This document shows positions 2 through 22,785 of a stretch of DNA of 64,000 nucleotides, piece by piece. The stretch is from Spirochaetia bacterium. Lineage in GTDB: Bacteria; Spirochaetota; Spirochaetia; UBA9216. The position numbers were made by a program, and so were the translations under genes. The stretch's first letter is position 1. Each line of letters opens with the position of its first letter. The notes under the pieces are model-generated. The model had not been told where the DNA came from, did no database searches, and worked only from the letters and a program-made list of their open reading frames with translations. Where the stretch lies: assembly GCA_963675665.1 (NCBI GenBank), contig OY776510.1, forward strand, positions 1,920,001-1,984,000. Reading direction: 5' to 3'.

Positions 2-730
2 TCGTGTACGCTCGATACTGCATGCGCAATTCTTGAAGCGTGCTGGAAAGCCTTGTCCCAGGTGCTTCCCGATCGTGTGCCAGCCGGGTGGAATCGCTGG
101 AACGGCCCCGCAATAGCCGGAGTAGACCCGAGAAGCGAAAACTTCTACGTTATGTTCGCATTCAACGGTTTCGGCGGCGCCGGGGGGATGTCCGGAATGG
201 ACGGCAGGCATTATATCGGCGATGGAATTGATCTGGGCGGCCTGATTGCTCCGAATATCGAAACCAACGAGTCTGATTATCCCCATATAACCGAGTTCAA
301 TGAATTCACGACGGACAGCTGCGGAGCCGGAAAATTCCGCGGCGGATGCGGCGCCGGTTACAGGATTAAAATGTACGATGATGAACCGAACCTGGTAATG
401 TTCGGCGACGGCCGTGATAATCCTCCGTATGGTTTGTTCGGAGGCGGTGAAGGCAGCCCCAATATGGCTTGGCTTAATCAGGGGCTTGAAAACGAACGGC
501 TGTTGAAATCTAAAGAGTCGGTAAACCTGCGTTCAGGCGAGACCTACACATCGTATCCTTCCGGAGGCGGAGGATGGGGTAACCCTGCCGAGCGTGATCC
601 GGAACTTGTACGTCTTGATGCGATGAATGAAATAATCAGCCTCGAGGCTGCCGGGAAGATCTATAAGGTTGCTCTTGAAGGTGAAGACTTGCATATAAAC
701 GAAGAAAAGACTGCTGAATTACGGAGGTGA
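2..730 (+). CDS. Hydantoinase B/oxoprolinase family protein (5'-truncated by window edge)
   Basis: Frame is open from position 2 (SCTLDTACAILEA...). Motifs GGAGG..GMDG, DSCGAGKFRGG, PPYGLFGG and SGGGGWGNP..RDPE.V..D are typical of HyuB/OplA C-termini. Confidence 0.9.
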   Translation, partial: SCTLDTACAILEACWKALSQVLPDRVPAGWNRWNGPAIAGVDPRSENFYVMFAFNGFGGAGGMSGMDGRHYIGDGIDLGGLIAPNIETNESDYPHITEFNEFTTDSCGAGKFRGGCGAGYRIKMYDDEPNLVMFGDGRDNPPYGLFGGGEGSPNMAWLNQGLENERLLKSKESVNLRSGETYTSYPSGGGGWGNPAERDPELVRLDAMNEIISLEAAGKIYKVALEGEDLHINEEKTAELRR

Positions 731-1866
731 GTGTGGAAATAAAAAAAATAGCTGTTCTGGGATCCGGAAACGGAGGGTTTATGAGCGCAGCCGATTTTGC
801 CCTGCAGGGATATGAAGTTGCCATCTACTCCAGGAATGACGAGAAGATCGCAGGGGTTAGGGCTAACGGGGGGATAGATCTTCTGGACATTGACTCAAAC
901 CCGACGGGGCAGAAGGCTGAAATTGCGTGTGCTACCTCCGATATTAAAGAAGCGCTGAAAGGCGCCCAGGTAGTTCTGAACCCGGTTCCAATTTTTGCAA
1001 GCAGTTTTTATGCTGAAAAATGCGCGCCGTATGTTGAAGACGGGCAAATCTTTGTCAGTCTGGGCAAGGGCGGAGCTTCACTTATATGGGCAAAGGTGTT
1101 CAAGGAAAAGGGTGTTTCCAAAAAGGTCTATCTTGCCGATACAAACACTCTGCCGTACGGTGCGTCCAGGATAGATGATCATTCCGTCAGGCTGGAAAAC
1201 AGAACACAGAATCTTCTTGCGGCCTGTTTTCCCGGAAAGGACATCAAATATGTTGGAGAGATACTTGAACAACTCTATACTCCGGACAACTACGATATCC
1301 GCTACGGGCAGAATGCCATAGATTCAATTCTTGTCGATTACAATGCTATAACGCATACGCCCCCGATGATCTGCAATGCGGCACGGATAGAAACCGGAGA
1401 TCCGGATTTTCATCTTTTCGGTAAAGATGAAAACACCCCGGCAGTTGTAAGGCTGATCGAAAGAATTGATCGCGAGCGTATGGCTATAGGAAAAGCACTC
1501 GGGCTGGAGCAGCACACACTTGAAGAAGAAATCCTGATGGTTAAGTGGAACCCGAATCAGGAAGATTATATTCTTCCGCTGTATGATGCCATCCACACCC
1601 CGTTTCTGGAAGTATGCGAAGGTCCGTTCAAACTTGAAACCAGGCACCTGACCGAGGATATACCTTACGGCCTTGTAACATATTCATCTCTCGGAAAGAT
1701 GCTTGGAGTGCCTACGCCGATATCGGATGCTGTAACTGCTATTGCCGGGGTTCTGCTCGATCGCGATTTTACAGCAAAAGGGAGGACTGTTGAACAGCTG
1801 GGAATTAATCCTTCATGGACAACTGAACAGCTGAAGCAATATCTTGAAGACGGAACAATAGAATAA
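727..1866 (+). CDS. NAD/NADP-dependent octopine/nopaline (opine) dehydrogenase family protein
   Basis: Rossmann motif IAVLGSGNGG, TNTLPY, N...H.PPM..NA.RIE, D.ERMAIG.ALG and RHLTEDIPYGL. GTG start overlaps the previous stop (GTGA). Confidence 0.88.
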   Translation: MSVEIKKIAVLGSGNGGFMSAADFALQGYEVAIYSRNDEKIAGVRANGGIDLLDIDSNPTGQKAEIACATSDIKEALKGAQVVLNPVPIFASSFYAEKCAPYVEDGQIFVSLGKGGASLIWAKVFKEKGVSKKVYLADTNTLPYGASRIDDHSVRLENRTQNLLAACFPGKDIKYVGEILEQLYTPDNYDIRYGQNAIDSILVDYNAITHTPPMICNAARIETGDPDFHLFGKDENTPAVVRLIERIDRERMAIGKALGLEQHTLEEEILMVKWNPNQEDYILPLYDAIHTPFLEVCEGPFKLETRHLTEDIPYGLVTYSSLGKMLGVPTPISDAVTAIAGVLLDRDFTAKGRTVEQLGINPSWTTEQLKQYLEDGTIE

Positions 1867-1915: not shown

Positions 1916-2920
1916 ATGTCACATTTGAAAGGAAGAGATTTAAAAGGTATTCTTGATGTTAACCGCGATGAAGTTGAATTTATTCTCGATGTAGCAAAAG
2001 AGCTTAAACGGGAACAGAAGATCGGCCGGCCTCATCGATTACTGGAGGGGAAAAGTCTCGGCGGAATTTTTGAAACACCCAGTACCCGTACGAGTATAAG
2101 TTTCGAAACGGCAATGACGCATCTCGGAGGGCATATGATCTGGCTTGACTCAAGCCGACTCTGGGTAGGCGATGCTGCCGAAGAAGACTGGCGCGATACG
2201 GTTAAAACCATCGACAGGTTCCTCGACGGAGTTGCATACCGCGTAGGCGCCGCCCGCGAGAGGCTGGACAACGCCGCCGAATATGCCGAGATTCCTTTTA
2301 TTAACGCTTCCTGCCCCGTAGAACATCCCTGCCAGGCTTTTGCAGATCTTTTAACTATGCGCGAAAAGAAAGGCGACACCAAAGGGGCAAAAGTTGCATT
2401 TATGTGGGGTTATCGCGATGCCAACCCGCCTGCGGGCCTTACCAATTCGCTTATGATGATGGCCGGCACAATGGGTTTCGACATCTCAGTTGCCTGTCCC
2501 CCAGGTTATGAGCCGCATCCCGATTATATGAAAGAAGCCATGGCACGATCTGAAAAATCAGGCGGAAGCGTAAAGGTTGTTCACGATTATGAATCTGCAG
2601 CAAAGGACGCCGATTTTATCAACGTCTATTCATGGGTTTCTCCGGAAGTCTGGGCAAAGAGCGTAGCAAACCATTTTCAGGCAGATCCGGCATTTCAGGC
2701 AGAGAAGCTGAAACTCAAGGATAAATGGTGTGTTACCCAGGATGTAGTGGATATGGCGAAGAAGGATGTTATGGTAATGCATCCCATGCCGATTGCGCGT
2801 AATGAAGAAGTAACGAACGAGGTTCTTGATTCCGAAAAATGCATAATCTACGATGTAGCCGAGAACAGGCTGCACACCGAGAAAGCAATACTTGCCCTGC
2901 TTCTCGGAGGATACCGATAG
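1916..2920 (+). CDS. Ornithine/aspartate carbamoyltransferase-family protein, divergent substrate site
   Basis: Carbamoyl-phosphate motifs STRT.SFE and HPCQ..ADLLT, C-terminal AENRLH. Has HPMP instead of HCLP and NVYSWVS instead of YTDVWVSMG. Confidence 0.88.
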   Translation: MSHLKGRDLKGILDVNRDEVEFILDVAKELKREQKIGRPHRLLEGKSLGGIFETPSTRTSISFETAMTHLGGHMIWLDSSRLWVGDAAEEDWRDTVKTIDRFLDGVAYRVGAARERLDNAAEYAEIPFINASCPVEHPCQAFADLLTMREKKGDTKGAKVAFMWGYRDANPPAGLTNSLMMMAGTMGFDISVACPPGYEPHPDYMKEAMARSEKSGGSVKVVHDYESAAKDADFINVYSWVSPEVWAKSVANHFQADPAFQAEKLKLKDKWCVTQDVVDMAKKDVMVMHPMPIARNEEVTNEVLDSEKCIIYDVAENRLHTEKAILALLLGGYR

Positions 2921-2935: not shown

Positions 2936-4258
2936 ATGTCTGAAAAGATCAGGATTGTTCATTTCATCAATCAGTTTTTTGCGGGGATCGGCGGTGAAGA
3001 GGAAGCCCATGTCGGCGTATCCTTCGAAGACGGTCCCAAAGGCCCCGGCACGGGTATAGAAGCAAAACTTTCCGATTCAGCTGAAGTGGTACGCACTATC
3101 TGGTGCGGGGATAACTATATAAACGAGAACCAGGAAGAAGCGTCGGCCGAGATTGAAAAACTGATTACGGATGCCAAACCGGATGTTGTGCTGGCAGGAC
3201 CGGCGTTCAATGCAGGCCGGTACGGACTTGCATGCGGGCTTGTAGCAAAAATGTGCCGGGACAAATTGGGAATTCCGGCAATCACCGGAATGTTTCCGGA
3301 GAACCCGGCTGTGGAAATCTACAAAGAAAGTGTCTATATAATGCCTGTAGGCGGAACTGCTGCGGGAATGCGCAAGGCCATACCTATGCTGTCCGAAAAG
3401 GTCCTGAAGCTCGGCCGGAAAGGCAAGCTTGGAAATGCTCTTGAAGACGGGTATATTCAGTCGGGTTACCGGTATAATGAGCTGGTTGAAAAGCCTGCAG
3501 CCGTACGGGCGCTCAATATGCTGATGCAGAGGCTGTCCGGGGAAGACCCGATAACCGAAGTACCGAGACGGACGTTTGAACAGGTTGATCCTGCACCCCC
3601 TGTCGGCAATATGAAGGAGGCTGTTATAGCTATAGTTACCGGCGGCGGAATGGTCCCGGCGGGAAATCCCGATAAACTGAAACAAGCCTTTGCCGATGCC
3701 TTCGGTGTTTACTCGATAGAGGGTCTGGATGAACTTCCTGCCGGAGAGTTCAAGGGAATTCACGGCGGGTTTGATTCAAGCTATGTAGATGAAGATCCGG
3801 ACAGGGTCGTTCCGCTCGACGCGCTTCGGGAGATGGAAAAAGAGGGAACATTTAAAAAGCTGGTTAATGAATATTTTGCGCTTTGCGGAATAGGGACAAA
3901 TGTAGCGATGAGTAAAAAGCTTGGAGCAGAGGTGGCCGAGGAGCTTAAAAGGAGACAGGTAAGCGCGGCAATCTACACCTCTACATGAGGCACCTGTACC
4001 CGTTGCGTGTCAACGATGCAGAAAGAAGCTGAGCGGGCAGGGATACCGTCGGCTTTGATTACAGCTATCCCGTCAGTTGCAAGTTCGGTCGGCGTAAGCC
4101 GAATCATAACAGGCGGAGGCATTCCCTATCCAGCAGGAGATCCGACTCTGCCGGCAGACAGAGAGATGGAGTTTCGTAAACGACTGGTAGAAAAGGCTCT
4201 TGAAGCCGTCAGTACAGCCGTCGACGGGCCGACAATTTTCAATGTCAGCATAGCCTAG
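2936..4258 (+). CDS. grdB: Glycine/sarcosine/betaine reductase selenoprotein B (GrdB/F/H family), Sec at in-frame TGA 3986-3988, 440 aa
   Basis: N-terminal HFINQFFAGIGGEE, GPAFNAGRYG and HGGFD...EDPDRVVPLD. Read-through gives TST-U-GTCTRC, joining ORFs 2936..3988 and 4007..4258 in frame. Confidence 0.95.
3994..4021 (+). promoter_or_regulatory. Candidate bacterial SECIS of grdB
   Basis: Hairpin ctgta-cc-cgttg-[cgtgt]-caacg-a-tgcag starts 6 nt after the UGA. The apical loop contains GU. Confidence 0.6.
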
Positions 4259-4274: not shown

Positions 4275-5585
4275 ATGAAACTTGAACGAGGTTATTTCGA
4301 AATAAAGGATCTGGTCTTCGGCGGCAGCCTGTCGCTGAAAGACGGGGTCCTGACAATTGAGAAAAAGGAACTTGAAAATTATCTTCTTTCCGAGGATGAA
4401 AACGGAAATATAGAGCACATAGAGCTGGAAATCGTCAGGCCCGGCGAGAACACGCGAATTGTGCATATTCTTGATACGGTTATGGCGGGCGTCAAGGTTG
4501 AGGGCGAGAGCGAATTTATGCCCGGACAGATGTGTGATCCTGTAATAGCCGGAAACGGCAAAACCCATTTAATAACAAACCTGGCGATCATGGAATGTGC
4601 CGAACTTCCCTGGGCGGGAAAATCAGCGCTGTTATATCCCCGTGATGCCATTGTCGATATGATGGGGCCGGCTGCCGGTTATTCTCCGTTTTCGGAAACT
4701 TTTAACCTGATCCTGAAAATGGATATGGTTAAGGATTCGTCTGACATCGAATACGACAATTCCGTCAGAAACGCGGGCATAAGATGCGCCAGAAAGATAG
4801 CGGAACTGCTTCGCGATCTTGTACCTGATCGAAGTGAAGTCTTTGATTTTGATCAGGAGGTTGACCCTGAATTGCCCAAAATTGCATATGTAACCCAATG
4901 CCAGAACCAGGGCGTATATTCGAACACATTTTTGTACGGACATGAAGTCTGGAACATTGTTCCGACATATCTGAATCCTACTGAAATGATGGACGGGTGT
5001 GTTGTCAGCGGAAATTATGTATGGCCCTGTTTCAAGGTGCCGTCCTGGATACAGGCAAATATGCCCGCAGTAATGGAGCTTGCACGCGGCCACGGCGTAA
5101 AGTGGAATTTCACCGGTGTGGTTTTTGACCGCGGACATAATGATTCTCATTTTCTTAAACAGAGAGCCGCAAGTCTTGCTTCAAACCTGGTGCGCAGGCT
5201 GGGGGCCGACGGTGTTCTTATCTCGTGGGAAGGCGGCGGAAACGCAGCTACGGATGCAATGCTTACCCTTCAGACTTGCGAAAAGTGGGGGATAAAAGCC
5301 GTGCCCTATACTTTCGAGTTCGGCGGTCCGGACGGCCGCGAGGGGATTCTGCTTGTGGATGATGTTCCGGAGGCTGAATATGTTGTATCAACCGGTTCGA
5401 TAGAGAAGCCGACGACTATTCCCGCTGTTGATCGCGTTGCCGGCGGCGACTGCCTGCGGCTGAGGAAAGAAACAGGGGGAGAGCCTGAACCGGCTGATGT
5501 TGAGCGAACGCTTGATGTAATCACGGCGTTCTACTGCGGTGCAAACCAGAGCGGAATAGGGAGACTGGCGGGAGTTCCCTATTAA
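4275..5585 (+). CDS. Glycine/sarcosine/betaine reductase component B proprotein (GrdE/G/I family), lacking the cleavage Cys
   Basis: MKLE.G.F.IKD..FG, IVRPGE..RI, DM.GPAA.YSPFS, PT.LNP.E.MDG.VVSGN and GADGVLIS.EGGGN...D. ATG at 4275 follows RBS GGAGG. Confidence 0.9.
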   Translation: MKLERGYFEIKDLVFGGSLSLKDGVLTIEKKELENYLLSEDENGNIEHIELEIVRPGENTRIVHILDTVMAGVKVEGESEFMPGQMCDPVIAGNGKTHLITNLAIMECAELPWAGKSALLYPRDAIVDMMGPAAGYSPFSETFNLILKMDMVKDSSDIEYDNSVRNAGIRCARKIAELLRDLVPDRSEVFDFDQEVDPELPKIAYVTQCQNQGVYSNTFLYGHEVWNIVPTYLNPTEMMDGCVVSGNYVWPCFKVPSWIQANMPAVMELARGHGVKWNFTGVVFDRGHNDSHFLKQRAASLASNLVRRLGADGVLISWEGGGNAATDAMLTLQTCEKWGIKAVPYTFEFGGPDGREGILLVDDVPEAEYVVSTGSIEKPTTIPAVDRVAGGDCLRLRKETGGEPEPADVERTLDVITAFYCGANQSGIGRLAGVPY

Positions 5586-5858
5586 AGTTGAGCAATTGGT
5601 TATTGCTCAACTTTAATCTAAAGTAATTATGACAACAAACGGGTGTCATAATTACTTATATAGGTCTAAGGAAGAAAACTGAAACTGAAGTTTCAGTTTT
5701 CAGATTGGCGATTGGTTATCACCAAGTTTCAATTTTAAGTTTAATAACACCCTTCGGTTGTTATTAAACTTCATGAAGCAATGCCGGGAAAAATTAAAAG
5801 TTGAAACTTTTAATTTTAACTTAAACAAATGCTGAAAAAAGTCAAAAGCTTGACTTTT
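5581..5858. repeat. Array of seven consecutive inverted repeats (hairpins) between grdE-like and grdA
   Basis: Stems: 5581-5617 (16 bp, loop TGGTT), 5621-5657 (14 bp), 5674-5701 (12 bp, loop TGAA), 5705-5725 (8 bp with 1 mismatch, loop TGGTT), 5737-5771 (13 bp), 5790-5817 (12 bp, loop TGAA), 5837-5858 (9 bp). Confidence 0.9.
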
Positions 5859-5933
5859 GGTTTTTAAATCCGTCGGTTAATCGGCCATGTTATGGTTCTC
5901 CGGCGGTTGTAATATTTTTTGGAGGTGATTCGG

Positions 5934-6392
5934 ATGCTTGAGGGCAAAAAGGTAATTATTCTCGGTGATCGCGACGGAATCCCGAGCGGCGCAATTGAAA
6001 ACTGCCTTTTGGGAAAAGAGCTGGAAATTATATTTTCCGTTACCGAGTGTTTTGTCTGAACTTCTGCCGGTGCAATGGATCTGGAGAACCAGAAGCGGGT
6101 GAAGGAGCTTGCTGAAAAACACGGGACTGATAATCTGTTTGTTCTGATAGGAGGAGCAGATCCCGAAGCAAGCGGTCTTGCTGTAGAGACAGTTATGGCC
6201 GGAGACCCGGCTTTTGCCGGTCCATTGACAGGAGTCCAGTTGGGACTTCCTGCATATCATATAGTAGAGCCTGAAATAAAGGCTGAAATTGATCCGACAG
6301 TTTATGAAGAAAACATCGGGATGATGGAAATGGTTCTTGATGTTGATGCTATAATTGAAGAAGTATCGACAGTCAGAAAGGATTGTTCATGA
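5934..6392 (+). CDS. grdA: Glycine/sarcosine/betaine reductase selenoprotein A, Sec at in-frame TGA 6057-6059, 152 aa
   Basis: RBS GGAGG and ATG 5934 give [24 protein letters not shown]...[21 protein letters not shown], in frame with ORF 6075..6392 ([21 protein letters not shown]). Confidence 0.96.
6061..6096 (+). promoter_or_regulatory. Candidate bacterial SECIS of grdA
   Basis: cttctg (6061-6066) pairs with cagaag (6091-6096), with an inner ccgg/ctgg stem around an atgga-containing loop, directly 3' of the UGA. Confidence 0.5.
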
Positions 6393-6703
6393 TCGAATTA
6401 GACAAGACAAACTATGACGAAACAGTAAAATCAGCAGAGAAACTGCTTGTCATTGATTTCTGGGGCACGACATGTGCCCCCTGCATGGCCCTGAAACCCT
6501 TTATCGAAAAGTACGAGAAGGAATTCGAGGGCAAAGCGGAATTCGCCGAAGTAAATATTCAGGGAAACCGACGGCTTGCGATACGCGAACAGGTTATGGG
6601 GCTTCCAACGATACTATTTTTTAAAAACGGAGAAAAAATCGACGAGCTTGTAGTTGATTTTTCCCCGCCTCAGCTTAAAAAAAAGATTGAGGAGCTTGTA
6701 TAA
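6389..6703 (+). CDS. trxA: Thioredoxin, Grd-associated type
   Basis: [11 protein letters not shown] active site and [25 protein letters not shown] 6389 overlaps the grdA stop (ATGA). Confidence 0.9.
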
Positions 6704-9267
6704 TGGGCAGTTATTCCGGAATTACTGCATGTTCATATAATCTTCTCCATGTTCCTGAATTAAGTTTCCGCTACGGAAGCACACCTGAAGCGGAACGTGA
6801 AGCACATCCGGATTCCGATTTTATTCGGAATCTGGAAGCTTCTTTCCGTTCCTTCGATGAAGCGGCCGCATATATTCCAAACCAGGTTTTTATCGGCAAT
6901 ATTGATCCTCTGAACATGCCCGAACGGCCGTGGTCCGGCAGGGATTCCGCCGTTGCCAGGAATTCAGGACCGTACGGAGACATCCTGGATGAGGTTTCCG
7001 CGATTGGTTTGCTGAAATTCTCGGACATGTTTGACCTTGTTCTGCTTGAAAGCGGCTTTGCAGCTTCCGCAAAGAAAAACCTTGAGGGCCTCGGGGTTCT
7101 GAAAGGATCCGATCTGTCGAAATTTGATACGGAAGTTTCGATTGATCAGATAAATGAGGCGATAAATACAAAAGCGCTTCCCCTGTATTACAAGAGAAAA
7201 ATTATCGGCTGTGTTAAGGCAGCTCATCCGGATGATCTCAGCCTCAGGGCCCATGTAATTTTTGAAAACCTTGCGTCTAAAGCCGGAGCGGTATATTCCG
7301 TTCTGAAACTCATTGCGTTAAGCGGAACGGACCCGGCTTCTGTTGATTATATTATTGAGACCTCGGAAGAAGCCTGCGGAGATGCAAACCAGCGCGGCGG
7401 AGGAAACTTTGCAAAAGCGATAGGAGAGCTTTCCGGGCTTAAAAATGCAACAGGCAGCGATACCCGTTCATTCTGTGCGGGCCCTGTCCACGGGATTCTG
7501 CAGGCAGCCTCGCTTGTAAAGGCCGGGACTTTCAGAAAGGTAATTGTGGCGGCAGGCGGTACAACCGCAAAGCTTGCCATGAATTCCAGAAAGCATATTG
7601 AAAAAGGCTTTCCCGTGCTTGAAGACTGTATGGGTGCTTATGCGCTGCTGATTGAAGGCGGAGACTCGCTTTCGGCGGGCAAACGGGGCGGAATAATAAT
7701 CAGAAACGATCTGGCGGGAATCCACCGGATAGGATCAGGCTCCTCGCCTCAGAACGTGATTCAGAGCCTTGTTGCCGACCCTCTGGAAAAGGCCGGAAAG
7801 CGATTTGATGAAATCGGTTATTACGCACCGGAGCTGCATAACCCGGAGATTACCGAAGCCGGAGGGGCAGGCAATGTAACCCTTGCCAACCTGAAGATGG
7901 TGGCAGCCATGGCCGTAATGAAAAAGCAGATTGAACGTTCGGATATCAACGACTTTATAGATGCTCACGGATCGCAGGGATGGGCGCCTACCCAGGGCCA
8001 CATCCCGTCAGGAATTCCCGCCCTGGGGTGGATTATGAAATGGTTTGAATCCGGGCGCATTAATAACGCGATGATTATAGGCAAGGGCAGCCTTTTTCTC
8101 GGAAGAATGACGGGACTGTTCGACGGTGTTTCAATAATACTGGAAAGCGGCCGTGTCGGAGGACCGACTTCTGAAAAGACGCCTGCTCACGCAGTTGCGA
8201 AATCTGTTTCGACCCGAAAGGGCGCCGTAAAAGTCGGGTTGACAATTCCCGGATCTGAATCAGGCGCCGGCGAGCTGCTGCGCGCGGCAGCCGAAGCTGA
8301 AACGGTTATGCCCGGGCTTGACGTGGTAACTTTCGGAGATGAATCTTCGGAACCGGGGAAGGCGCATGGAATGATGGAGAAAGCGCTTGAACAGGGTGAT
8401 GTGGATTCCGTGGTAACATTTCACTATCCGTTTCCTGTAGGAACCGCAACCGTAGGGCACACAAAAGCGCCCGGCAGCGGACGTGATATTTTTATCGCGT
8501 CGACTACCGGAATATCGGACACAAACCGAGTTGTCGCCCTGATTAAAAACGCGGTTGCCGGAATTGCTGCTGCAAAGGCCTGGGGAATAGTCTCTCCTTC
8601 TGTCGGAGTGCTTAACCTCGACGGGGCCCGCGCGGCCCTGCAGGGATTAAAACGCCTGAAGAGCTCCGGTTACGGTATAGAATTGGCCGTGTCGGCCCGG
8701 GGCGATGACCTGCTGCGCGGAAACGACATTCTTGCCGGAACAGCCGATGTAATCGTCTGCGATACTCTCAGCGGTAATGCTTTCATGAAACTTTTAACGG
8801 CATATTCTTCCGGCGGAATGCTTGAAGTCAGCGGATCAGGCTACGGGCCGGGGCTCGGCGCTGAGCTGCCACTTGTGAATATCATTTCGCGGGCAGCCGG
8901 AAGCGCCGCAGTTGTAAACGCGATAATTTATTCGGCACGAATGGCTTTGTCGGGTTTACAAACTGTCTATTCCGAAGAGTATGCATCAGCTTTAAAAGCC
9001 GGTCTTTCCGGGATAATCGAAGAAAACAGGCAACCGGAAACCAACGCGGAATCCGGATCTGAGGAGCCTGAAGCAAAGACTGTGGAACATGAGATTGAAG
9101 GAATTGATGTGCTTCAGCTTGAAGATGCCGTTAAACGACTTAAAGCGGACGGGATCTACTGCGAAGCCGGAATGGGCTGTACCGGACCGGTGGTTATGAT
9201 CGCTGTTGAAGATGTTGAACCGGCAAAGAAAATACTGATAAAGCAAGGGTTTATCGAGGAGGCTTAG
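6703..9267 (+). CDS. grdCD: Fused glycine reductase protein C (GrdC beta + GrdD alpha subunits)
   Basis: GrdC motifs YIPNQVFIGN, SEEACGDANQRGGGNFAKAIGE, DTRSFCAGP, PTQGHIPSG and GKGSLFLGRMT. After a low-complexity linker come GrdD motifs VTFHYPFPVG, RGNDIL.GT.DV, GSGYGPG and C-terminal CEAGMGCTGP. Confidence 0.92.
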   Translation: MGSYSGITACSYNLLHVPELSFRYGSTPEAEREAHPDSDFIRNLEASFRSFDEAAAYIPNQVFIGNIDPLNMPERPWSGRDSAVARNSGPYGDILDEVSAIGLLKFSDMFDLVLLESGFAASAKKNLEGLGVLKGSDLSKFDTEVSIDQINEAINTKALPLYYKRKIIGCVKAAHPDDLSLRAHVIFENLASKAGAVYSVLKLIALSGTDPASVDYIIETSEEACGDANQRGGGNFAKAIGELSGLKNATGSDTRSFCAGPVHGILQAASLVKAGTFRKVIVAAGGTTAKLAMNSRKHIEKGFPVLEDCMGAYALLIEGGDSLSAGKRGGIIIRNDLAGIHRIGSGSSPQNVIQSLVADPLEKAGKRFDEIGYYAPELHNPEITEAGGAGNVTLANLKMVAAMAVMKKQIERSDINDFIDAHGSQGWAPTQGHIPSGIPALGWIMKWFESGRINNAMIIGKGSLFLGRMTGLFDGVSIILESGRVGGPTSEKTPAHAVAKSVSTRKGAVKVGLTIPGSESGAGELLRAAAEAETVMPGLDVVTFGDESSEPGKAHGMMEKALEQGDVDSVVTFHYPFPVGTATVGHTKAPGSGRDIFIASTTGISDTNRVVALIKNAVAGIAAAKAWGIVSPSVGVLNLDGARAALQGLKRLKSSGYGIELAVSARGDDLLRGNDILAGTADVIVCDTLSGNAFMKLLTAYSSGGMLEVSGSGYGPGLGAELPLVNIISRAAGSAAVVNAIIYSARMALSGLQTVYSEEYASALKAGLSGIIEENRQPETNAESGSEEPEAKTVEHEIEGIDVLQLEDAVKRLKADGIYCEAGMGCTGPVVMIAVEDVEPAKKILIKQGFIEEA

Positions 9268-11495: not shown

Positions 11496-11783
11496 GTGAA
11501 GGTTGTTGTTGAGTTTATCGGATATTTCCGGATTAAGGCGGGCTGCGAACTGGTTGAGTTTGAGCTGCCGGACGATGTTTCCGCAGCAGAACTGGTTGAT
11601 GCAATTGAGCAGAAATTTGAACGGCAGAAGCTGAAAATCAGTAAAGAAGGTATTCTTCAGGAGGGCGTTCTTATGTTTTACAGGAAAGAAAACGGCGGAC
11701 TTGAACGGATATTTAATCTGTCGTCCGGTCTGAAGGATGCAGGCGAAAGAATTGTGATAGCTAATCTGATGGGTGGAGGTTGA
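11496..11783 (+). CDS. MoaD/ThiS-like sulfur-carrier (ubiquitin-like) protein
   Basis: 95 aa with C-terminal MGGG, directly after AOR as is typical. Confidence 0.8.
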   Translation: MKVVVEFIGYFRIKAGCELVEFELPDDVSAAELVDAIEQKFERQKLKISKEGILQEGVLMFYRKENGGLERIFNLSSGLKDAGERIVIANLMGGG

Positions 11784-11788
11784 GCTGA

Positions 11789-12637
11789 ATGGAATATTAT
11801 CGTCCGCATACTGTTGAAGAAGCGGTTAACCTGAAAGACGGGAACTCTTTATTTATAGCCGGAGGAACCGACCTCGGTGTAATGCTGGCCGACGCTGTAA
11901 AACAGCCGGGAGCATTGATTGATTTAAGTGCCATCGGCAGCCTCGACGGAATCAGGGAAAGAAAAGACGGGCTGGTTATAGGTCCCTGTACAAAAATTGC
12001 CGATATAGCTTCCTCGGATGTTCTCCCGGCAGCCCTTACCCGTGGCGCCGCAGCAATTGGCTCTCCACAGATCCGAAATATGGCCACAATAGGGGGAAAT
12101 ATCTGCAATGCATCGCCGTGCGGCGATACGCTGACCCCGTTAACGGTGTTTCATGCGGTATTTACGCTTCAGGGAAGGGAAGGCTCCAGGACAATCACTA
12201 CCGGTGATTTTTTCAGGGGACCAAAACAAACCGACCTCAGGGAGACGGAGATTCTGACCGAAATTTTTATTCCGGGAACAGCGCTTGCCGGTCTCAGCGG
12301 GTTCAGGATGACCGGGAAACGTAACGGGCAGGCGATATCACAGGTGAATATGGCACTCAGGCTGACGGTTGAAAACGGTACTGTAACCGGAGCGGTAATA
12401 GCCGCCGGGTCCGTAGCCCCGGTTCCAATCCGGCTTGAAAAATGCGAACAGCTTCTTACTGGGGTAAGAACAGCGGACCTTGTTTTCGGGGCCCCGTTTC
12501 TGAAAGAACTGGCGGCAGAGGCAGAGGCTGAAGTAATGCCGATATCTGATATACGCGCCGGGGAAGATTATCGCAGAAGCGTAAGCGGCTCCATACTTTC
12601 AGAGCTGGTTGCCGGGATAATTGCGGAGGGAGTGTGA
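11789..12637 (+). CDS. xdhB: Xanthine dehydrogenase family FAD-binding subunit
   Basis: IAGGTDL, IGSPQIRNMATIGGNICNASP.GD and PISDIRA..DYRR. Confidence 0.92.
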   Translation: MEYYRPHTVEEAVNLKDGNSLFIAGGTDLGVMLADAVKQPGALIDLSAIGSLDGIRERKDGLVIGPCTKIADIASSDVLPAALTRGAAAIGSPQIRNMATIGGNICNASPCGDTLTPLTVFHAVFTLQGREGSRTITTGDFFRGPKQTDLRETEILTEIFIPGTALAGLSGFRMTGKRNGQAISQVNMALRLTVENGTVTGAVIAAGSVAPVPIRLEKCEQLLTGVRTADLVFGAPFLKELAAEAEAEVMPISDIRAGEDYRRSVSGSILSELVAGIIAEGV

Positions 12638-13116
12638 GCGGTATGGAAATCAACTTTGTCATAAATGGGGAAAAACGGACAGAATATGCAGCAGCCGAGA
12701 CGAGGGCTCTTGATCTGCTTCGCGAAGATCTGAATCTTACCGGCACAAAAGAGGGCTGCGGCAAGGGAGAATGCGGGGCCTGTACAATTCTTCTTGACGG
12801 AAAACCCGTTTGTTCTTGTCTTCTTCCGGCCCCGAAGCTTGAGGGATGCAGTATTGTTACAATTGAAGGACTTAAAGGTGACGACGGAGGTCTTCATCCG
12901 ATACAGCAGGCTTTTCTTGATGCCGGCGCTATTCAGTGCGGATTCTGTACTCCCGGAATGATTTTAAGCGCCAAGGCTCTTCTGGATAATAACCCCGCGC
13001 CTGAGACAGCCGAGATAGAAACGGCATTAAGCGGAAATATCTGTCGTTGCACGGGCTACGGTAAAATTATCGAAGCGGTACAGCTTGCAGCTGAAAGGAT
13101 GCGGGTGGCCAAATGA
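12634..13116 (+). CDS. xdhC: Xanthine dehydrogenase family 2Fe-2S subunit
   Basis: GTKEGCGKGECGACT, QCGFCTPG and GNICRCTGY. Confidence 0.95.
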   Translation: MSGMEINFVINGEKRTEYAAAETRALDLLREDLNLTGTKEGCGKGECGACTILLDGKPVCSCLLPAPKLEGCSIVTIEGLKGDDGGLHPIQQAFLDAGAIQCGFCTPGMILSAKALLDNNPAPETAEIETALSGNICRCTGYGKIIEAVQLAAERMRVAK

Positions 13117-15413
13117 CTGATAAAAACAGCGATATGAATTTAAAGGTAGTCGGCAAACCGGCCGTCAAGGTCGACGGTTTGGAGCTTGTTACCGGAAGGG
13201 CCAAATTTTCAGGTGATATGCGGTTTCCGGGAATGGTTTACGGATACGCGGCCCGCGCGGGGGTTCCTGCGGGGAAGCTTAAATCAGTCGATGTTACCGG
13301 GGCATTGGAGGCAGAGGGTGTGCTGGCTGTTTTGACGGCGGAATCATTGCCGGGGCCCAATCTGATGGGTATTCTTCCGCCGTTTGATCAGCCGGTTCTG
13401 GCCGCTGATGAAATCAGGTATGCAGGAGAAAGCGTGGCTTTTGTAGTTGCACGCACAAAACGTGCGGCAAGGCTGGCTTCAAAGCTTGTAAAAATCGAAA
13501 TCGAAGAGTATGCCCCGGTCCTGACAACCGAAGAAGCGCTGAAAACAGGCGCCAGAAAGATTCATCCCGACGGAAATATTACGTATACACGCAAACTGAT
13601 CAAGGGTGATGTTGAAGCCGGTTTTGCCGATGCTGATCTTGTAGTTGAAAATGATTATGAAACATCTTTCCAGGAGCATGCCTACATTGAACCTGAAAGC
13701 GTATGCGCAGTGCCGTCAGGAGATAACAGGGTTACGGTTTACGCAAGCTGCCAGTCTCCGTATCATCTGCGTTCCCACATAGCGGCGAACATCGGGCTTC
13801 CGCATACGAAGGTCAAGGTTATTCAGGCATATACCGGCGGGTCTTTCGGCGGCAAGGATGATGCTGCTGCCGAGATAGGTATTCTTGCTGCGGCTGCCGC
13901 GGTTAAACTGCAACGACCGGTAATGGTTGCCCATGACAGGGAAGAATCGATAATCGGAACAAACCTGCGGCACGCCATGAAGATACACTATAAAACCGGT
14001 CTGAAAAAGGACGGAACAATTACCGCCCGTAAAGCGGAGCTTGTTCTTGACGGCGGGGCCTATGCTTCGGAAAGCCCTTTTGTTGTAATGAAAGCGCTTA
14101 TCCACGCTGCAGGACCGTACATCATTCCGAATGTGATGATTGAATCCACGGCTGTTTATACCAACAAGACTTATTCGGGCGCATTCAGGGGGTTCGGGGT
14201 TCCACAGGTTACCTTTGCCGGTGAAACGCAGCTGCAGGAAGCCGCCGACAGGTTGGGGCTTGATCCGCTTGATATACGGATGAAAAACGCACTTAAACCG
14301 GGAGAAGCCACGGCTACAAGTCAGGTGCTTAATGAATCGGTGGGAATAAGACAGACCATAGAATGCGTGCAAAAGCGGGCAAATGAAATTTCAGTCGAAA
14401 CATACGAAGACGAACGATATCTTTACGGCACCGGATATGCTTCGATGTTGCAGGGAATATCCAACGGGGCCGAAGGCATTGACGTTGTAGGCGCCTCGGT
14501 GCAGATGAGCCAGGACGGTTCTGTCCTGGTCGGCGCGGGGCTTACCGAACTGGGGCAGGGCGCCCGGACGGTGCTTGCCCAGATTGCGGCCGAAGTCCTC
14601 GGCGTGCCGGTTGAAAGGGTAACGGCCAGGCTGGCAGATACCGATTCGGTTCATGATTCGGGGCCTACTGTAGCCTCGCGTACAACAACAACCGGCGGGA
14701 TGGCTGTATACAAGGCCGCAAACGAGGTTAAAAACAGCCTGCTGCAGATGGCGGCGCTGATGTTCAAGACCGAAGCGGAAAATATTGTGCTGAAAGAGGG
14801 ATTCGCAGTGCTTGTTTTTGACGACTCGGCCAGAATTCCAATCAGCGATGTTGCAACTGCGGCATACTGGACCGGGTTCCCGCTGATGAATATGGCGTTT
14901 TCCCGTGCGCCCGATGCCGAATATGATCATGATACTCACCAGGGACGAATCTATATCGCTTATAACTTCGGGACCCATATGATGAGGATAAGAATTGATA
15001 AATCCACAGGCCGTGTAGAGGTTTTAAACCATGTTGCTTCGCATGATGTCGGCAAAGTCATCAATCCTCTTGGATTGACCGGCCAGGTTGAAGGCGCGTC
15101 GCTGATAGGTTTTGGTCTCGGGCATATGGAAAAGATTGAATATGACGGCGGTATTATCAGGAATCCGAATTTTGCTGATTATGCCGTGCCTACGATAATG
15201 GACAGAATTCCGACTGAAGTAATTGCTGTGGAAGAGGCGACTGTAAACGGGCCTTACGGGGCAAAGGGGGTCGGAGAACCGCCGGTTGCAGGAGCAACTG
15301 CAGCATTTGCTAACGCGGTGGCTGATGCGGTCGGCTGCAGATTCAGAAAGATTCCTGTAACCAGAGAGGATATCCTGGCTGCAATTCGCAGCGCAGAGCG
15401 GCAGGGAGAGTGA
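13113..15413 (+). CDS. xdhA: Xanthine dehydrogenase family molybdopterin-binding subunit
   Basis: QEHAYIEPE, GGSFGGK, AFRGFGVPQ, ELGQG, TVASR, GQVEG and GAKGVGEPP. Confidence 0.93.
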   Translation: MTDKNSDMNLKVVGKPAVKVDGLELVTGRAKFSGDMRFPGMVYGYAARAGVPAGKLKSVDVTGALEAEGVLAVLTAESLPGPNLMGILPPFDQPVLAADEIRYAGESVAFVVARTKRAARLASKLVKIEIEEYAPVLTTEEALKTGARKIHPDGNITYTRKLIKGDVEAGFADADLVVENDYETSFQEHAYIEPESVCAVPSGDNRVTVYASCQSPYHLRSHIAANIGLPHTKVKVIQAYTGGSFGGKDDAAAEIGILAAAAAVKLQRPVMVAHDREESIIGTNLRHAMKIHYKTGLKKDGTITARKAELVLDGGAYASESPFVVMKALIHAAGPYIIPNVMIESTAVYTNKTYSGAFRGFGVPQVTFAGETQLQEAADRLGLDPLDIRMKNALKPGEATATSQVLNESVGIRQTIECVQKRANEISVETYEDERYLYGTGYASMLQGISNGAEGIDVVGASVQMSQDGSVLVGAGLTELGQGARTVLAQIAAEVLGVPVERVTARLADTDSVHDSGPTVASRTTTTGGMAVYKAANEVKNSLLQMAALMFKTEAENIVLKEGFAVLVFDDSARIPISDVATAAYWTGFPLMNMAFSRAPDAEYDHDTHQGRIYIAYNFGTHMMRIRIDKSTGRVEVLNHVASHDVGKVINPLGLTGQVEGASLIGFGLGHMEKIEYDGGIIRNPNFADYAVPTIMDRIPTEVIAVEEATVNGPYGAKGVGEPPVAGATAAFANAVADAVGCRFRKIPVTREDILAAIRSAERQGE

Positions 15414-15431
15414 TCTCCTGAAGGAGCTTTT

Positions 15432-16820
15432 ATGGCTGATATTTTTATAAAGAACGCGCTGGTAATGACCTGTGAGCCGAATGTCATCAGCGGAGAAATT
15501 ATCGACGGCGGCGCTGTCGCAGTCAGGGACGACCGGATCATCGCAGTCGGTAAAACTGCGGATCTTGAACCTGAATACGGCAAATCCGAAAGGGTGATTG
15601 ATGCTGCCGGTAAAATCGTAATGCCCGGGTTTATAATTACCCATACTCATATGCCGTATGTGATGGGACATAACCAGCCGGTTGATTTCAGCCAGCTTCG
15701 CTCTTTTTGGGACATGCTTCAGAAAATGGGATGGGAATGGCTGGAAGATCTTATTACCCGGGAAGGAATCTACGCGGCAACCCGCTATGCAGCGGCAAAG
15801 ATGCTGAAAAGCGGTACGACCACGGTATGCGATCTTGTCGAGGCTCCCAATGACATGGACGGCGCCCTTGAGGCAAGTTCAAAAGCGATAGAAGAAATCG
15901 GAATAAGAGCTAACCTCGGGTACGAAGTAACCGAAAGGGTTCCGGGAGTTTCAATTCTCGAAAAACTGGATCCCGCAATGGCCCGAAAGGGGCTTGAAGA
16001 AAATATCCGGCTGATAGAAAAGTATCCGGCCGACGGCAATTCGCTGATAAAACCCCGCCTCGGAGTGCATACCGCCTATACAAACTCGCCTGAAACCCTG
16101 AAACTCGCCCGTGAAACCGCGGACCGCTACGGCTGCGGCATACAGATTCATATTGCCGAGATACCGAGGGCTTTCCTGGTTGAGAAATACGGAAAATCAG
16201 CACCGATGCTGCTTGAGGAATGCGGTCTTCTTGGCCCTGATGTTGTAGCCGCACATTGTATAGATTTAACCGATGAAGATTTGAACATCCTGGCGCGAAA
16301 CAGAGTGAACGTTGCACATACGCCGATGACCAACTCGCTGGGCGGAAACGGCGTTGCAAGGGTTCCCGATATGTTGCAGAGCGGTATGAACGTCACAATA
16401 GGACATGATTGTTTCTTTACTCTCGATACGTCGGAGTATATCCGTTATACATACCTTATTCATAAGGCCCATAATGCAAACCCGGCCCTGATGCCTCCTT
16501 TCATGCCGCTTGATTTTGCTTTGGGTAATGCTGCAAAAGCGTTAGGAATGGAAAAAACAATCGGCAGTATAACCGGAGGTAAAAAAGCGGATCTGCTGAT
16601 AATCAAACCCGATTGCCCGACCCCGCTGACTCCTGCGTCTGTTATGTCGTTTTTTACAATGACTTTTCTCGGCAAGGATGTCGAGACAGTGCTTGTCGAC
16701 GGCAGAATTGTAGTAGACGATAAAAAACTTGCCACAGGGGACGAAGATGCAATAATGGCCGAATGCGTAAGGCAAAGCACCGATCTCTGGGAACGGTGCA
16801 GCAGAAAGGGAGGTAATTGA
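15432..16820 (+). CDS. Metal-dependent amidohydrolase (SsnA/MTA-SAH deaminase-like)
   Basis: MPGFI.THTH (HxH), HTAYT, HIAE, AHC, HTP.TN, GHD and G.I..GKKADL. Confidence 0.88.
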   Translation: MADIFIKNALVMTCEPNVISGEIIDGGAVAVRDDRIIAVGKTADLEPEYGKSERVIDAAGKIVMPGFIITHTHMPYVMGHNQPVDFSQLRSFWDMLQKMGWEWLEDLITREGIYAATRYAAAKMLKSGTTTVCDLVEAPNDMDGALEASSKAIEEIGIRANLGYEVTERVPGVSILEKLDPAMARKGLEENIRLIEKYPADGNSLIKPRLGVHTAYTNSPETLKLARETADRYGCGIQIHIAEIPRAFLVEKYGKSAPMLLEECGLLGPDVVAAHCIDLTDEDLNILARNRVNVAHTPMTNSLGGNGVARVPDMLQSGMNVTIGHDCFFTLDTSEYIRYTYLIHKAHNANPALMPPFMPLDFALGNAAKALGMEKTIGSITGGKKADLLIIKPDCPTPLTPASVMSFFTMTFLGKDVETVLVDGRIVVDDKKLATGDEDAIMAECVRQSTDLWERCSRKGGN

Positions 16821-17995
16821 TGGCCGATATAAAGATTAATTTCTGCGGATTCAAACTGGATAATCCCGTGATTGTCCCCGCAGGGGCCCACGGCAGGGAC
16901 GCCGAGACCATTATCAGCGTCGGTAAAACCGGAGTAGCCGGTGTCTGCACTAAAACAATTACCGCCCAGGCTCCGCCGGATGTACGCCCGTGCTTTACGG
17001 CCGTTAATTCCGGCATGATCAATTCGGTATTCGGTTCGGATAAGCCGGCTGAATACTGGTTTTCGGAAGGTATTTCAAAGGCAAAAAAGACCGGCAGCGC
17101 GCTTGTGATTGCGAACCTGGCCGGTTTTTATCCCGAGCAGGCTGCCGAACTGGCAAAAATGGCGGTAGACTGCGGGGCTGATATGGTTGAAGTACCTACA
17201 CATTGCCCTCATATGGGCGAAATCCTGATGGCCATGTTTCCCGAAATGGAGATGTCCGAACCCAAACTTACGGACCTGGGCCCGATGAAAGCTTCGGTCG
17301 CCCTGATTAAAGAAGCAGTGAATGTTCCGGTAATCGTCAAACTCTCCGGAAGCTTTTCGAATATTGTCCGGGAATGGGCTGCCGGGGTCAGGGATTCGGG
17401 TGCGGATGCAATTGCGTGTTCCGATGCATTCGGACCGGCCCTTTCGATTGATCTCAAGACAGGACAACCGGCGCTCGGCGGACCGAGGGGCGTAGGAGGG
17501 CTGACAGGCCCGGCCATCAAGCCGATTGTACTGCGAATGGTAATGGAAATAGCCGATACGGTTGATTTACCGATAATAGGGGTCGGGGGAGCTTCAAGCG
17601 CTGAGGATGTTCTTGAATACACAATGGCGGGCGCTACCCTGGTAGGCGTATGCACTCACGGGCATATGAAAGGCATAAACGCATATGAAAAGCTTATAAA
17701 CTCCATATCCCCGGCACTTGACAAATACGGCTACGACAGCCTGGATGAGATCCGGGGATTGACTTTGAAACGAATTGAACAACGAAAAACTGAAGGAAAG
17801 CAGGCGGTTACAGAAGCTGTTGTACCTGCGGTTGATCATTCCCGTTGTATCCTCTGTAAAAAATGTGCCCGGGTATGTGCTTATGATGCTATAGTGATTA
17901 GGGACAAGGTTGAAGTATCGTCCGAAAAGTGTTACGGCTGCGGTTTGTGCGTCAGCGTATGCCCTGAAGATGCTTTGAGCCAGAATTATTACTAA
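16820..17995 (+). CDS. Dihydroorotate/dihydropyrimidine dehydrogenase-like (PreA-like) flavoprotein with C-terminal 2x4Fe-4S
   Basis: G.KL.NPVI, KTIT, CPH, PVIVKL, GGLTGPAIKP and PIIGVGG. C-terminal CILCKKCARVC and CYGCGLCVSVCP. Confidence 0.85.
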   Translation: MADIKINFCGFKLDNPVIVPAGAHGRDAETIISVGKTGVAGVCTKTITAQAPPDVRPCFTAVNSGMINSVFGSDKPAEYWFSEGISKAKKTGSALVIANLAGFYPEQAAELAKMAVDCGADMVEVPTHCPHMGEILMAMFPEMEMSEPKLTDLGPMKASVALIKEAVNVPVIVKLSGSFSNIVREWAAGVRDSGADAIACSDAFGPALSIDLKTGQPALGGPRGVGGLTGPAIKPIVLRMVMEIADTVDLPIIGVGGASSAEDVLEYTMAGATLVGVCTHGHMKGINAYEKLINSISPALDKYGYDSLDEIRGLTLKRIEQRKTEGKQAVTEAVVPAVDHSRCILCKKCARVCAYDAIVIRDKVEVSSEKCYGCGLCVSVCPEDALSQNYY

Positions 17996-19149: not shown

Positions 19150-19164
19150 GGTTGAAAATGAACA

Positions 19165-19192
19165 GAGGCCGTGGGCGGAAGTCCACGGCTTC
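19165..19192 (+). terminator. Stem-loop after binding-protein gene (mRNA stabiliser or partial terminator)
   Basis: gaggccgtgggc-GGAA-gtccacggcttc, GNRA loop. Confidence 0.65.
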
Positions 19193-19215
19193 AAATTTTA
19201 TTCAGGAAGGTGTAA

Positions 19216-22689: not shown

Positions 22690-22720
22690 AAGCGTTTTAA
22701 AGTAAAACATCATGTTGTGC

Positions 22721-22785
22721 TTGATAAACCGGAAACTCTAACGTATAATAAACCTAACGTTATACGTAAGAAAAAACAACGTAAG
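22721..22785 (+). promoter_or_regulatory. Sigma70 promoter with candidate MerR-type operator
   Basis: TTGATA(22721)-17 bp-TATAAT(22744). Imperfect palindrome ctaacgt-tat-acgtaag at 22754-22770, with extra half-sites at 22738 and 22779. Confidence 0.6.

Follow-up and report, generated by a model that had tools for sequence, protein, structure and literature searches.

Glycine reductase and its relatives rely on substrate-binding subunits of the PF09338 family, of which GrdE and GrdG cleave themselves at an Asn-Cys bond (SGN-C) to form a pyruvoyl group; in glycine reductase this group makes the amine a leaving group. GrdI of the betaine reductases (Peptoclostridium acidaminophilum type) is without the cysteine, presumably uncleaved and free of pyruvoyl. 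A further precedent, according to the available text of its report, is FarE of Cloacibacillus porcorum, a Cys-less, uncleaved E subunit that acts with FarB on a compound of the type X-CH2-COOH with a good leaving group and no amine (PMC10838667). The closest described relatives belong to riboflavin metabolism: in the available text of Quiles Perez et al. (J Bacteriol 2026, PMC13492142), Clostridium scindens converts riboflavin anaerobically to lumichrome, and high riboflavin induces finA-K, the 'flavin induced neighbourhood', whose finHI genes encode homologues of glycine/betaine/sarcosine reductases and are proposed to remove the two-carbon unit kept in hydroxyethylflavin. The same text distinguishes a short and a long fin form among Lachnospiraceae and names Muricomes intestini as a bearer of the long finGHI form. 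Here we describe a Cys-less PF09338 protein, GrdE' (positions 4275-5585), and its selenoprotein partner GrdB', encoded in a stretch of 64,000 nucleotides (the window) from the genome of a Spirochaetia bacterium (contig OY776510.1, positions 1,920,001 to 1,984,000). GrdE' is very probably a non-pyruvoyl subunit of the FinI clade, and not a GrdE, GrdG, GrdI or FarE. We lean, if only narrowly, towards a function of GrdB'E' as a carboxymethylflavin reductase that would yield lumichrome and acetyl phosphate.

The grdE' frame translates without a stop into a protein that contains MMDGCVVSGNYVWPCFKVPS, and the longer stretch around its motif reads DGCVVSGNYVWPCFKVPS. PF09338, the family of glycine/sarcosine/betaine reductase component B subunits, covers residues 1-430 (377 bits). 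The site that aligns with SGN-C of GrdE lies in the motif VVSGN-Y248-VWPCFK and holds a tyrosine in place of an Asn-Cys cleavage site. Because the aligned site reads SGN-C-VSACDK in all four GrdB-linked genes, Tyr248 is, by alignment, at the position of the pyruvoyl-forming cysteine, which agrees with the original prediction of a tyrosine at this codon. It is neither a chance replacement nor a sequencing oddity, since a word-indexed search retrieved 120 homologues (49-90% identity) and all 120 have SGNY[VA]WP. The motif also recurs in 77 of the 78 genome loci in which a pattern located the site (the pattern failed in 2 of 80), and the remaining one has isoleucine. The original prediction took the missing cysteine as a sign of a substrate other than glycine or sarcosine; the absence holds, but it is not unusual, as tyrosine is the commonest residue among family representatives. 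The aligned cleavage site of 132 representatives shows 65 Tyr, 16 Phe and only 7 Cys. These 132 sequences (395-460 aa) come from the best 150 of 892 members found at E <=0.001 in a 50%-identity representative library, a sample that leans towards relatives of GrdE'; even given this leaning, the alignment marks the Cys-less site as the rule in PF09338 and not the exception. Databases label the homologues of GrdE' 'glycine reductase' or 'sarcosine reductase', and a PDB sequence search with GrdE' gave no match at E <=0.01.

To place GrdE' in the family, the GrdE and GrdI groups were defined via their partner selenoproteins, because NCBIfam gave no match to a GrdE or GrdI model. The reference genomes, with 2-9 PF09338 matches each, were those of Alkaliphilus peptidifermentans, M. 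intestini, Treponema putidum and Lutispora saccharofermentans. Three groups emerged. GrdE proteins carry SGNCVSACDK (4/4), have partners that pass the GrdB model (717 and 627 bits; cut-off 602) and precede them in gene order. GrdI proteins carry SGSFMP[CV]SSKW (3/3), likewise precede their partners, and these pass the GrdH model (833-840 bits; cut-off 775; 3/3). Proteins of the window type carry SGNYVWP, follow their partner in gene order, and this partner stays under all cut-offs. GrdB' itself, read through its TGA, matches TIGR01918 end to end in a single frame (481 bits; motif S-T-U-G-T-C-T-R-C), and reaches 487 of 800 bits on the GrdF model (NF040794), 454 of 602 on GrdB (TIGR01917) and 423 of 775 on GrdH (NF040795). 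Three other window-type partners scored 419-497 bits on the GrdF, GrdB and GrdH models, all below the cut-offs. GrdE' reaches 254 bits on the GrdG model (cut-off 780), 125.7 on the FarE model NF053623 (cut-off 675) and 29.9 on the model of the D-proline reductase protein PrdA, TIGR04480 (cut-off 700).

A FastTree phylogeny (LG+gamma; 154 sequences, 417 trimmed columns) agrees with this grouping. Besides GrdE', it comprised the 132 representatives, 10 close homologues and 11 references taken from the four genomes. Representatives outside the range of 395-460 aa were excluded, and the positions of GrdG and FarE are unlabelled. GrdE' falls into a clade of 17 members (support 0.976), 16 of which carry VSGNYVWP and one VGGNLAWP, together with the FinI of M. 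intestini and copies from T. putidum, A. peptidifermentans and L. saccharofermentans; the smallest clade that unites GrdE' with M. intestini FinI has a support of 0.614. GrdE and GrdI cluster together in a far-off region of the tree. By BLASTP, GrdE' is 49.5% identical to M. intestini FinI, 34-36% to GrdE and 32% to GrdI. Several suggestions of the original prediction thus find support: the enzyme is not a plain GrdI, as its motif differs and it does not nest in the GrdI clade, and glycine or sarcosine is not the expected substrate of a protein outside the GrdE clade whose partner stays under the GrdB, GrdF and GrdH cut-offs.

The genomic surroundings of the clade connect it with flavins. Beyond gut Lachnospiraceae, its carriers are found in Spirochaetota, other Bacillota, oral Treponema and an Acidobacteria metagenome-assembled genome, and locus L046 is the M. 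intestini fin neighbourhood itself. In 11 annotated non-spirochaete loci, aldehyde dehydrogenases, RibF-like riboflavin kinase/FAD synthetases and DeoC/LacD-family aldolases recur, as do zinc-dependent alcohol dehydrogenases, APC-type permeases and SorC or HTH-cupin regulators. With M. intestini proteins as queries, each of 47 non-spirochaete loci of at least 14 kb contained at least one fin gene: the aldehyde dehydrogenase FinG was present in 42 and replaced by an aldehyde:ferredoxin oxidoreductase (AOR) in two (L071, L074), the RibF-like FinB occurred in 31, the aldolase FinC and the alcohol dehydrogenase FinD in 30 each, and a Fin-type permease in 35. Locus L082 from the Acidobacteria genome (contig RFHM01000199.1) carries two adjacent GrdB'/GrdE'-type pairs and a TonB-type outer-membrane barrel. 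As it combines the clade with an aldolase, a zinc-dependent alcohol dehydrogenase, an EamA-family transporter and an FGGY kinase, it provides a second FGGY variant in a third phylum and looks like the Gram-negative counterpart of this pathway. Treponema putidum ATCC 700334 (L062/L090) has a canonical GrdE/GrdB pair as well as a FinHI-type pair, the latter placed with an aldehyde dehydrogenase, an aldolase, a zinc-dependent alcohol dehydrogenase, a permease and a RibF-like kinase. Some of the genes that oral treponemes have under the annotation 'glycine reductase' may therefore have flavins as their substrates.

The window itself contains a side-chain module that resembles this set (Table 1). 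Besides a subunit of the FinI clade, it encodes a class I aldolase, a zinc-dependent alcohol dehydrogenase and an aldehyde-oxidising enzyme. Its aldolase matches the five NCBIfam families that M. intestini FinC also matches, ranked slightly differently, and its alcohol dehydrogenase is the best of five in the window when compared with FinD (34-41% against 22-35% identity). The binding protein of the adjacent ABC importer has its best PDB match in 4iil, the RfuA of T. pallidum (E 2e-77), followed at a distance by the purine-nucleoside binder PnrA (E 1e-19). According to the available text on this structure, 4IIL is TP0298/RfuA of Treponema pallidum crystallised with riboflavin, and S24, Y27, N82, Y157 and W189 contact the isoalloxazine (mBio 2013, PMC3573665). 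All five contacts are conserved in the window protein, by a HMMER alignment that allows for a numbering offset of 22 residues.

Table 1. Genes and elements of the window that bear on GrdB'E', with positions counted from its first nucleotide.
Feature	Position	Strand	Remarks
hyuB, 3' end (hydantoinase B / caprolactamase-beta-like)	2..730	+	PF02538
Opine-type dehydrogenase	727..1866	+	PF02317; best PDB match 1bg6, N-(1-D-carboxyethyl)-L-norvaline dehydrogenase, E 6e-41
Ornithine-carbamoyltransferase-like enzyme	1916..2920	+	TIGR00658 267.9 bits, cut-off 280.85; PDB ornithine carbamoyltransferases E 2e-71
GrdB' / FinH-like selenoprotein B	2936..4258	+	440 aa; selenocysteine (Sec) 351 at TGA 3986-3988; motif U-G-T-C-T-R-C
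GrdE' / FinI-like subunit	4275..5585	+	436 aa; Tyr248 (codon 5016-5018) replaces the cleavage-site Cys
AT-rich spacer grdE'-grdA	5586..5933		348 bp; at least 5 separate palindromes
GrdA selenoprotein A	5934..6392	+	Sec42 at TGA 6057-6059; NF040748 167.5 bits, cut-off 130
Thioredoxin	6383..6703	+	PF00085
Fused GrdC-GrdD (component C beta + alpha)	6703..9267	+	854 aa; NF040746 620 bits, NF040747 391 bits
4Fe-4S ferredoxin	9268-9672	+	
Tungsten-type AOR	9672-11495	+	PF01314, PF02730
MoaD-like protein, three XDH-family subunits (FAD, 2Fe-2S, Mo), SsnA-like amidohydrolase, PreA-like dihydropyrimidine/dihydroorotate dehydrogenase	11496..17995	+	all below equivalog cut-offs
RfuABCD-like ABC importer: Bmp-family binding protein, ATPase, two permeases	18061..22689	+	
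MerR regulator, zinc-dependent alcohol dehydrogenase, FGGY kinase, aldolase, MFS transporter	22717..27668	+	
Zinc-dependent alcohol dehydrogenase	23235-24257	+	
Xylulokinase-like FGGY kinase	24257-25717	+	XylB model 254 bits, cut-off 380
DhnA-type class I aldolase	25718-26506	+	same five NCBIfam families as M. intestini FinC
selB + selA (selenocysteine incorporation)	27649..30742	-	PF00009, PF03841

The remaining parts of a glycine-reductase-type system lie directly downstream. GrdC and GrdD are usually separate proteins; here they are fused, and both halves exceed their NCBIfam cut-offs. The host genome, a single contig of 5.15 Mb that is 96% complete, carries no other PF09338 gene and no other GrdA, so that GrdA, thioredoxin and GrdCD should serve GrdB'E' alone. 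We read both in-frame TGA codons as selenocysteine because homology continues in frame on either side and selA and selB stand in the window. Folding of the RNA after the two UGA codons (the folded stretches began 3 and 1 nt, respectively, into the sequence that follows them) gave no excess over shuffled controls (z 0.01 and -1.18) and thus no support for a selenocysteine insertion sequence (SECIS).

Taken together, GrdE' and GrdB' are best explained as the substrate-specific 'protein B' of a glycine-reductase-type system without pyruvoyl, in which GrdE' would be an uncleaved orthologue of FinI and GrdB' an orthologue of FinH. With M. intestini FinH/FinI they share the clade, the identical VSGNYVWP, the order of selenoprotein before E subunit, an aldehyde-oxidising enzyme, a zinc-dependent alcohol dehydrogenase and a DhnA-type class I aldolase. 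In contrast to that system, however, the spirochaete locus belongs to another phylum and uses other parts: a xylulokinase-like FGGY kinase replaces the RibF-like FinB, tungsten AOR with ferredoxin the FinG aldehyde dehydrogenase, an RfuABCD importer the APC-type permeases, and MerR and GntR regulators the SorC regulator, while GrdA, thioredoxin and GrdCD share the operon and the enzyme is embedded in a 23.5-kb cassette. Like GrdI/GrdH, the pair combines a PF09338 protein without the cleavage cysteine with a Sec-containing B subunit of the UxxCxxC type, and feeds GrdA and GrdCD; it differs in identity, motif, clade, gene order and neighbours, and its partner fails the GrdH model. The two-protein architecture and the downstream GrdA, thioredoxin, GrdC and GrdD are also those of GrdE/GrdB and GrdG/GrdF, whose canonical SGN-C cleaves itself where GrdE' has tyrosine. 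GrdB' has a CxxC, which FarB lacks according to the available text of its report (PMC10838667). What is new here is the phylum and the exchange of accessory enzymes, as this kind of system was first described in 2026, from expression data only. The reductase specificity that the original prediction regarded as new is not wholly so, because it had already been proposed in that year for the Lachnospiraceae homologues. A literature search for riboflavin or lumichrome together with selenoproteins or AOR returned PMC13492142 as the only relevant paper, and a word search of its main text found no selenium, pyruvoyl, acetyl phosphate, Treponema or spirochaetes.

The membership in the FinI clade, the fin context of its relatives, the Rfu-type importer in the window, the linkage of this importer to the side-chain module, the place of the grdB'E' cassette beside that module, the GrdA and GrdCD dedicated to one enzyme and the second FGGY variant in L082 are our reasons for favouring carboxymethylflavin as the substrate. 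They also fit the original prediction, which had inferred an N-carboxymethyl compound such as a heteroaromatic and listed carboxymethylflavin among the substrates to try. The motif with its conservation, the place in the FinI clade and outside GrdE, GrdG, GrdI and FarE, and the genes with their order are direct results. We infer the substrate and every chemical step as follows, with a logic that borrows from the fin proposal and from ketose-1-phosphate pathways. Riboflavin would enter through the RfuABCD-like importer, and the zinc-dependent alcohol dehydrogenase would oxidise the 4'-hydroxyl of its ribityl chain to a 4'-keto compound. After phosphorylation of the adjacent 5'-hydroxyl by the FGGY kinase, the class I aldolase could release dihydroxyacetone phosphate and leave 10-formylmethylflavin, which AOR and ferredoxin would convert to 10-carboxymethylflavin. 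The selenolate of GrdB' might then attack the methylene carbon and expel lumichrome. Isoalloxazine N10 is non-basic and departs as a stabilised alloxazine. With such a stabilised, non-basic leaving group a Schiff base would be unnecessary and the cysteine dispensable in GrdE', comparable to trimethylamine in the case of GrdI or, by the available text on FarE, to fluoride (PMC10838667). We speculate that Tyr248 and Trp250 may stack on lumichrome or protonate it. The carboxymethyl group would move to Sec42 of GrdA as a carboxymethyl selenoether, from which the fused GrdCD could form acetyl phosphate, with electrons supplied by thioredoxin.

Comparative genomics suggests how the reductase and the side-chain module came together. 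Of 151 genomes sampled evenly across the class, eight, that of the window included, have a GrdE' orthologue with 73% identity or more, and four others have a match of 35-36%. Aldolase orthologues of at least 59% identity are found in 20 genomes, including seven of the eight GrdE'-positive ones, and in four of five relatives grdE' and the aldolase orthologue (66-85% identity) share a contig, with the aldolase gene about 19-21.6 kb further downstream, as in the window. The unit rfu(A)BCD-(merR)-ADH-FGGY-aldolase(-MFS), with ADH for alcohol dehydrogenase, is present in five of five Spirochaetia genomes with the aldolase and without a GrdE' match, one of whose contigs ends inside rfuD. An ornithine carbamoyltransferase gene adjoins rfuA in two of these five, one from the same genus and one from the same family. 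The corresponding gene of the host sits upstream of the cassette, and the 23.5-kb stretch from an aminotransferase and GntR to the PreA-like gene (G000:C1 about 1,914,555-1,938,060; in L002 from about 9555 to window position 18060) is missing in both relatives. From this adjacency in the two relatives we conclude that the grdB'E' stretch behaves as a discrete cassette inserted directly beside the riboflavin-importer module. The HyuA of the cassette is 71-75% identical to copies in loci of Christensenellaceae and other Clostridia that bear the same reductase clade, a similarity that suggests transfer across phyla.

Within the spirochaete type, the order GntR-hyuA-hyuB-opine dehydrogenase-carbamoyltransferase-grdB'-grdE'-grdA-trx-grdCD is kept in nine of 18 loci, and most of the others are short contigs. 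Ferredoxin, AOR and the XDH-family genes come next in seven of the nine; L012 and L079 go directly to XDH. In the host, hyuA and a GntR regulator lie directly upstream of the window, and the full-length HyuA and HyuB (L002) score 738 and 432 bits on caprolactamase models with a cut-off of 1000. The opine dehydrogenase, HyuA and the SsnA-like protein have orthologues in the eight GrdE'-positive genomes and in one more of the sample, G129, whose assembly of 380 contigs yielded no GrdE'. The loci L013, L015 and L033 have another upstream region. L033 reads selA-selB-SDR-grdB'-grdE'-trxB-grdA-trx-grdCD, followed by an RfuA-like transporter, and is without hyuAB, opine dehydrogenase and carbamoyltransferase; L013 has the same gene content up to its contig end within grdC. 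The spirochaete importer-aldolase unit without grdE' and the same unit with the cassette beside it thus form a short and a long version, which parallel the short and long fin forms of Lachnospiraceae but are made of different enzymes.

Several observations weigh against carboxymethylflavin as the substrate. The published evidence for FinHI consists of induction and product formation. FinB has no equivalent of its own kind in the window, which encodes an FGGY kinase in its place and has no Flavokinase or FAD_syn domain. The aldolase and alcohol dehydrogenase of the window are merely 33-41% identical to FinC and FinD. We had expected them to be the best matches of the genome, but paralogues in a cluster at 4.39 Mb score higher against the M. 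intestini proteins (213 versus 156 bits for FinC, 275 versus 233 bits for FinD), so that this expectation had to be dropped. The orthology of the side-chain enzymes to FinC and FinD is thus weakened: it is not established by sequence and leans on their linkage to the RfuA-like importer. The genes upstream of grdB'E', separated by short gaps and probably co-transcribed with it, encode HyuAB, the opine dehydrogenase and the carbamoyltransferase, which are superfluous to the proposed side-chain pathway. One GrdE'-positive genome, G012 (94% complete), showed no aldolase orthologue. Two members of the clade (P0122, L081) carry Leu or Ile at the tyrosine site, and Tyr is consequently not indispensable. 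Moreover, no lumazine synthase (PF00885) was found in the host genome, while the model matched in 14 of 14 control genomes; the host is probably a riboflavin auxotroph, and the Rfu importer could therefore serve vitamin salvage also or only. The Flavokinase Pfam model likewise had no match in the host genome. A RibF-like open reading frame of 264 aa with a FAD_syn domain exists there (G000:C1:3589365-3589868) and may end in a divergent kinase, formed by its C-terminal part. The cluster at 4.39 Mb (L120, G000:C1:4389000-4408999) consists of a SorC regulator, an FGGY kinase, an SDR protein, a ribose-type ABC transporter, a DhnA-type aldolase and a zinc-dependent alcohol dehydrogenase, and looks Lsr-like.

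The superfluous genes of the cassette lead to the strongest rival, which we consider rather unlikely: the spirochaete enzyme could have diverged from FinHI and reduce other X-CH2-COOH compounds, delivered by HyuAB, opine dehydrogenase and carbamoyltransferase together with the XDH/SsnA/PreA route. The source would be a heterocycle of the purine, pyrimidine or hydantoin type, and N-carbamoylglycine or an N-carboxymethyl ureide could be converted to urea or an amide and acetyl phosphate. The conserved gene order upstream of grdB'-grdE' in half of the spirochaete-type loci and the shared occurrence of the opine dehydrogenase, HyuA and SsnA with GrdE' would fit such a role, as would an identity of only about 50% between the spirochaete and fin subclades and the presence of XDH and SsnA beside the clade in 4-6 of 47 Bacillota loci. 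The active-site stretch VSGNYVWP, however, is identical in both subclades, and the L013/L033 subgroup manages with grdB'E'-trxB-grdA-trx-grdCD, to which L033 adds the RfuA-like transporter, without the putative supply genes. Such an enzyme would also need no aldehyde oxidation, yet an aldehyde-oxidising enzyme is encoded in 44 of 47 non-spirochaete and eight spirochaete loci. Less probable still is the same chemistry on another N-ribitylated heterocycle (6,7-dimethyl-8-ribityllumazine, the deazaflavin FO or roseoflavin) that enters by Rfu-like uptake and releases a lumazine or deazaflavin. The sequence of alcohol dehydrogenase, kinase, aldolase, aldehyde oxidation and C-N cleavage would depend on the ribityl chain alone, and by their family annotation the neighbouring XDH-family enzymes would suit pteridine-type rings; but all five isoalloxazine contacts of RfuA are conserved, and experiments connect the clade with riboflavin and lumichrome only.

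Readings within the classical reductases fare worse, and we rejected betaine, glycine and sarcosine as substrates on account of scores under the cut-offs, motif, tree position and context. A glycine or sarcosine reductase that gains its carbonyl by serinolysis at Ser245 or from a formylglycine in GrdB' is very improbable. The available text of PMC10838667 does speculate about a formylglycine in the STUG motif. The best NCBIfam scores of the two proteins are indeed to the sarcosine models GrdG and GrdF, Ser245 is invariant in GrdE'-type proteins, the S-T-U-G motif is conserved, and the organism has no second Grd system. Those scores nevertheless lie far under the cut-offs of 780 and 800 bits, the clade is distant from GrdE in the tree, and its context is flavin and aldehyde metabolism. 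In addition, canonical GrdE proteins, whose cleavage is at Asn-Cys, keep Ser245 to the same degree, so that this residue gives no sign of a new cleavage site. That GrdE' is the equivalent of GrdI in a betaine reductase seems barely credible. The two share the lack of the cysteine, but GrdB' remains at 423 bits on the GrdH model where three true GrdH proteins reach 833-840, SGNYVWP stands against SGSFMP, and the tree separates GrdE' from GrdI. Furthermore, the order B' before E' is the opposite of grdI-grdH, and the Pfam matches in the window include no BCCT-type betaine transporter family.

If GrdB'E' is a carboxymethylflavin reductase, a large and widely mis-annotated branch of the glycine reductases would cleave a C-N bond to a heteroaromatic nitrogen without pyruvoyl, and the side chain of vitamin B2 would supply anaerobes with energy, conserved in the form of acetyl phosphate. 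The fin pathway would then extend beyond a handful of gut Lachnospiraceae to all carriers of the clade named above, in interchangeable versions with a RibF-like or FGGY kinase, NAD-type or tungsten-dependent aldehyde oxidation, and a permease or ABC importer. Genome-based predictions of glycine, sarcosine and betaine reduction, of riboflavin cross-feeding and of lumichrome formation would have to include this branch. The substrate and the products, lumichrome and acetyl phosphate, would be directly measurable.

The 23.5-kb cassette could also dismantle the alloxazine ring, and would then be the first such anaerobic route; we regard this extension as tentative and on balance doubtful. The XDH-type hydroxylase, the PreA-like reductase and the SsnA-like amidohydrolase might prepare the ring, an ATP-dependent HyuAB lactamase could open the pyrimidinedione, the carbamoyltransferase would free the ureido group as carbamoyl phosphate, and the opine-type dehydrogenase may cleave the resulting N-aryl amino acid. 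In that event, one vitamin molecule would give ATP in three ways, through triose phosphate, acetyl phosphate and carbamoyl phosphate.

Two further features of the window deserve mention. A scan of its whole length against Rfam showed no riboswitch, the FMN and glycine types included, and the spacer between grdE' and grdA matched no Rfam family, promoter pattern or terminator pattern. The palindromes in this spacer are perfect or near-perfect, with arms of 13-16 nt and loops of 2-9 nt, and might form an element for mRNA processing or stability or a protein-binding array. Far downstream, at positions 51426-54779, a PFL-like glycyl-radical enzyme of 808 aa and its radical-SAM activase stand beside sugar-type ABC transporters and several zinc-dependent alcohol dehydrogenases, a group of genes unrelated to the reductase.

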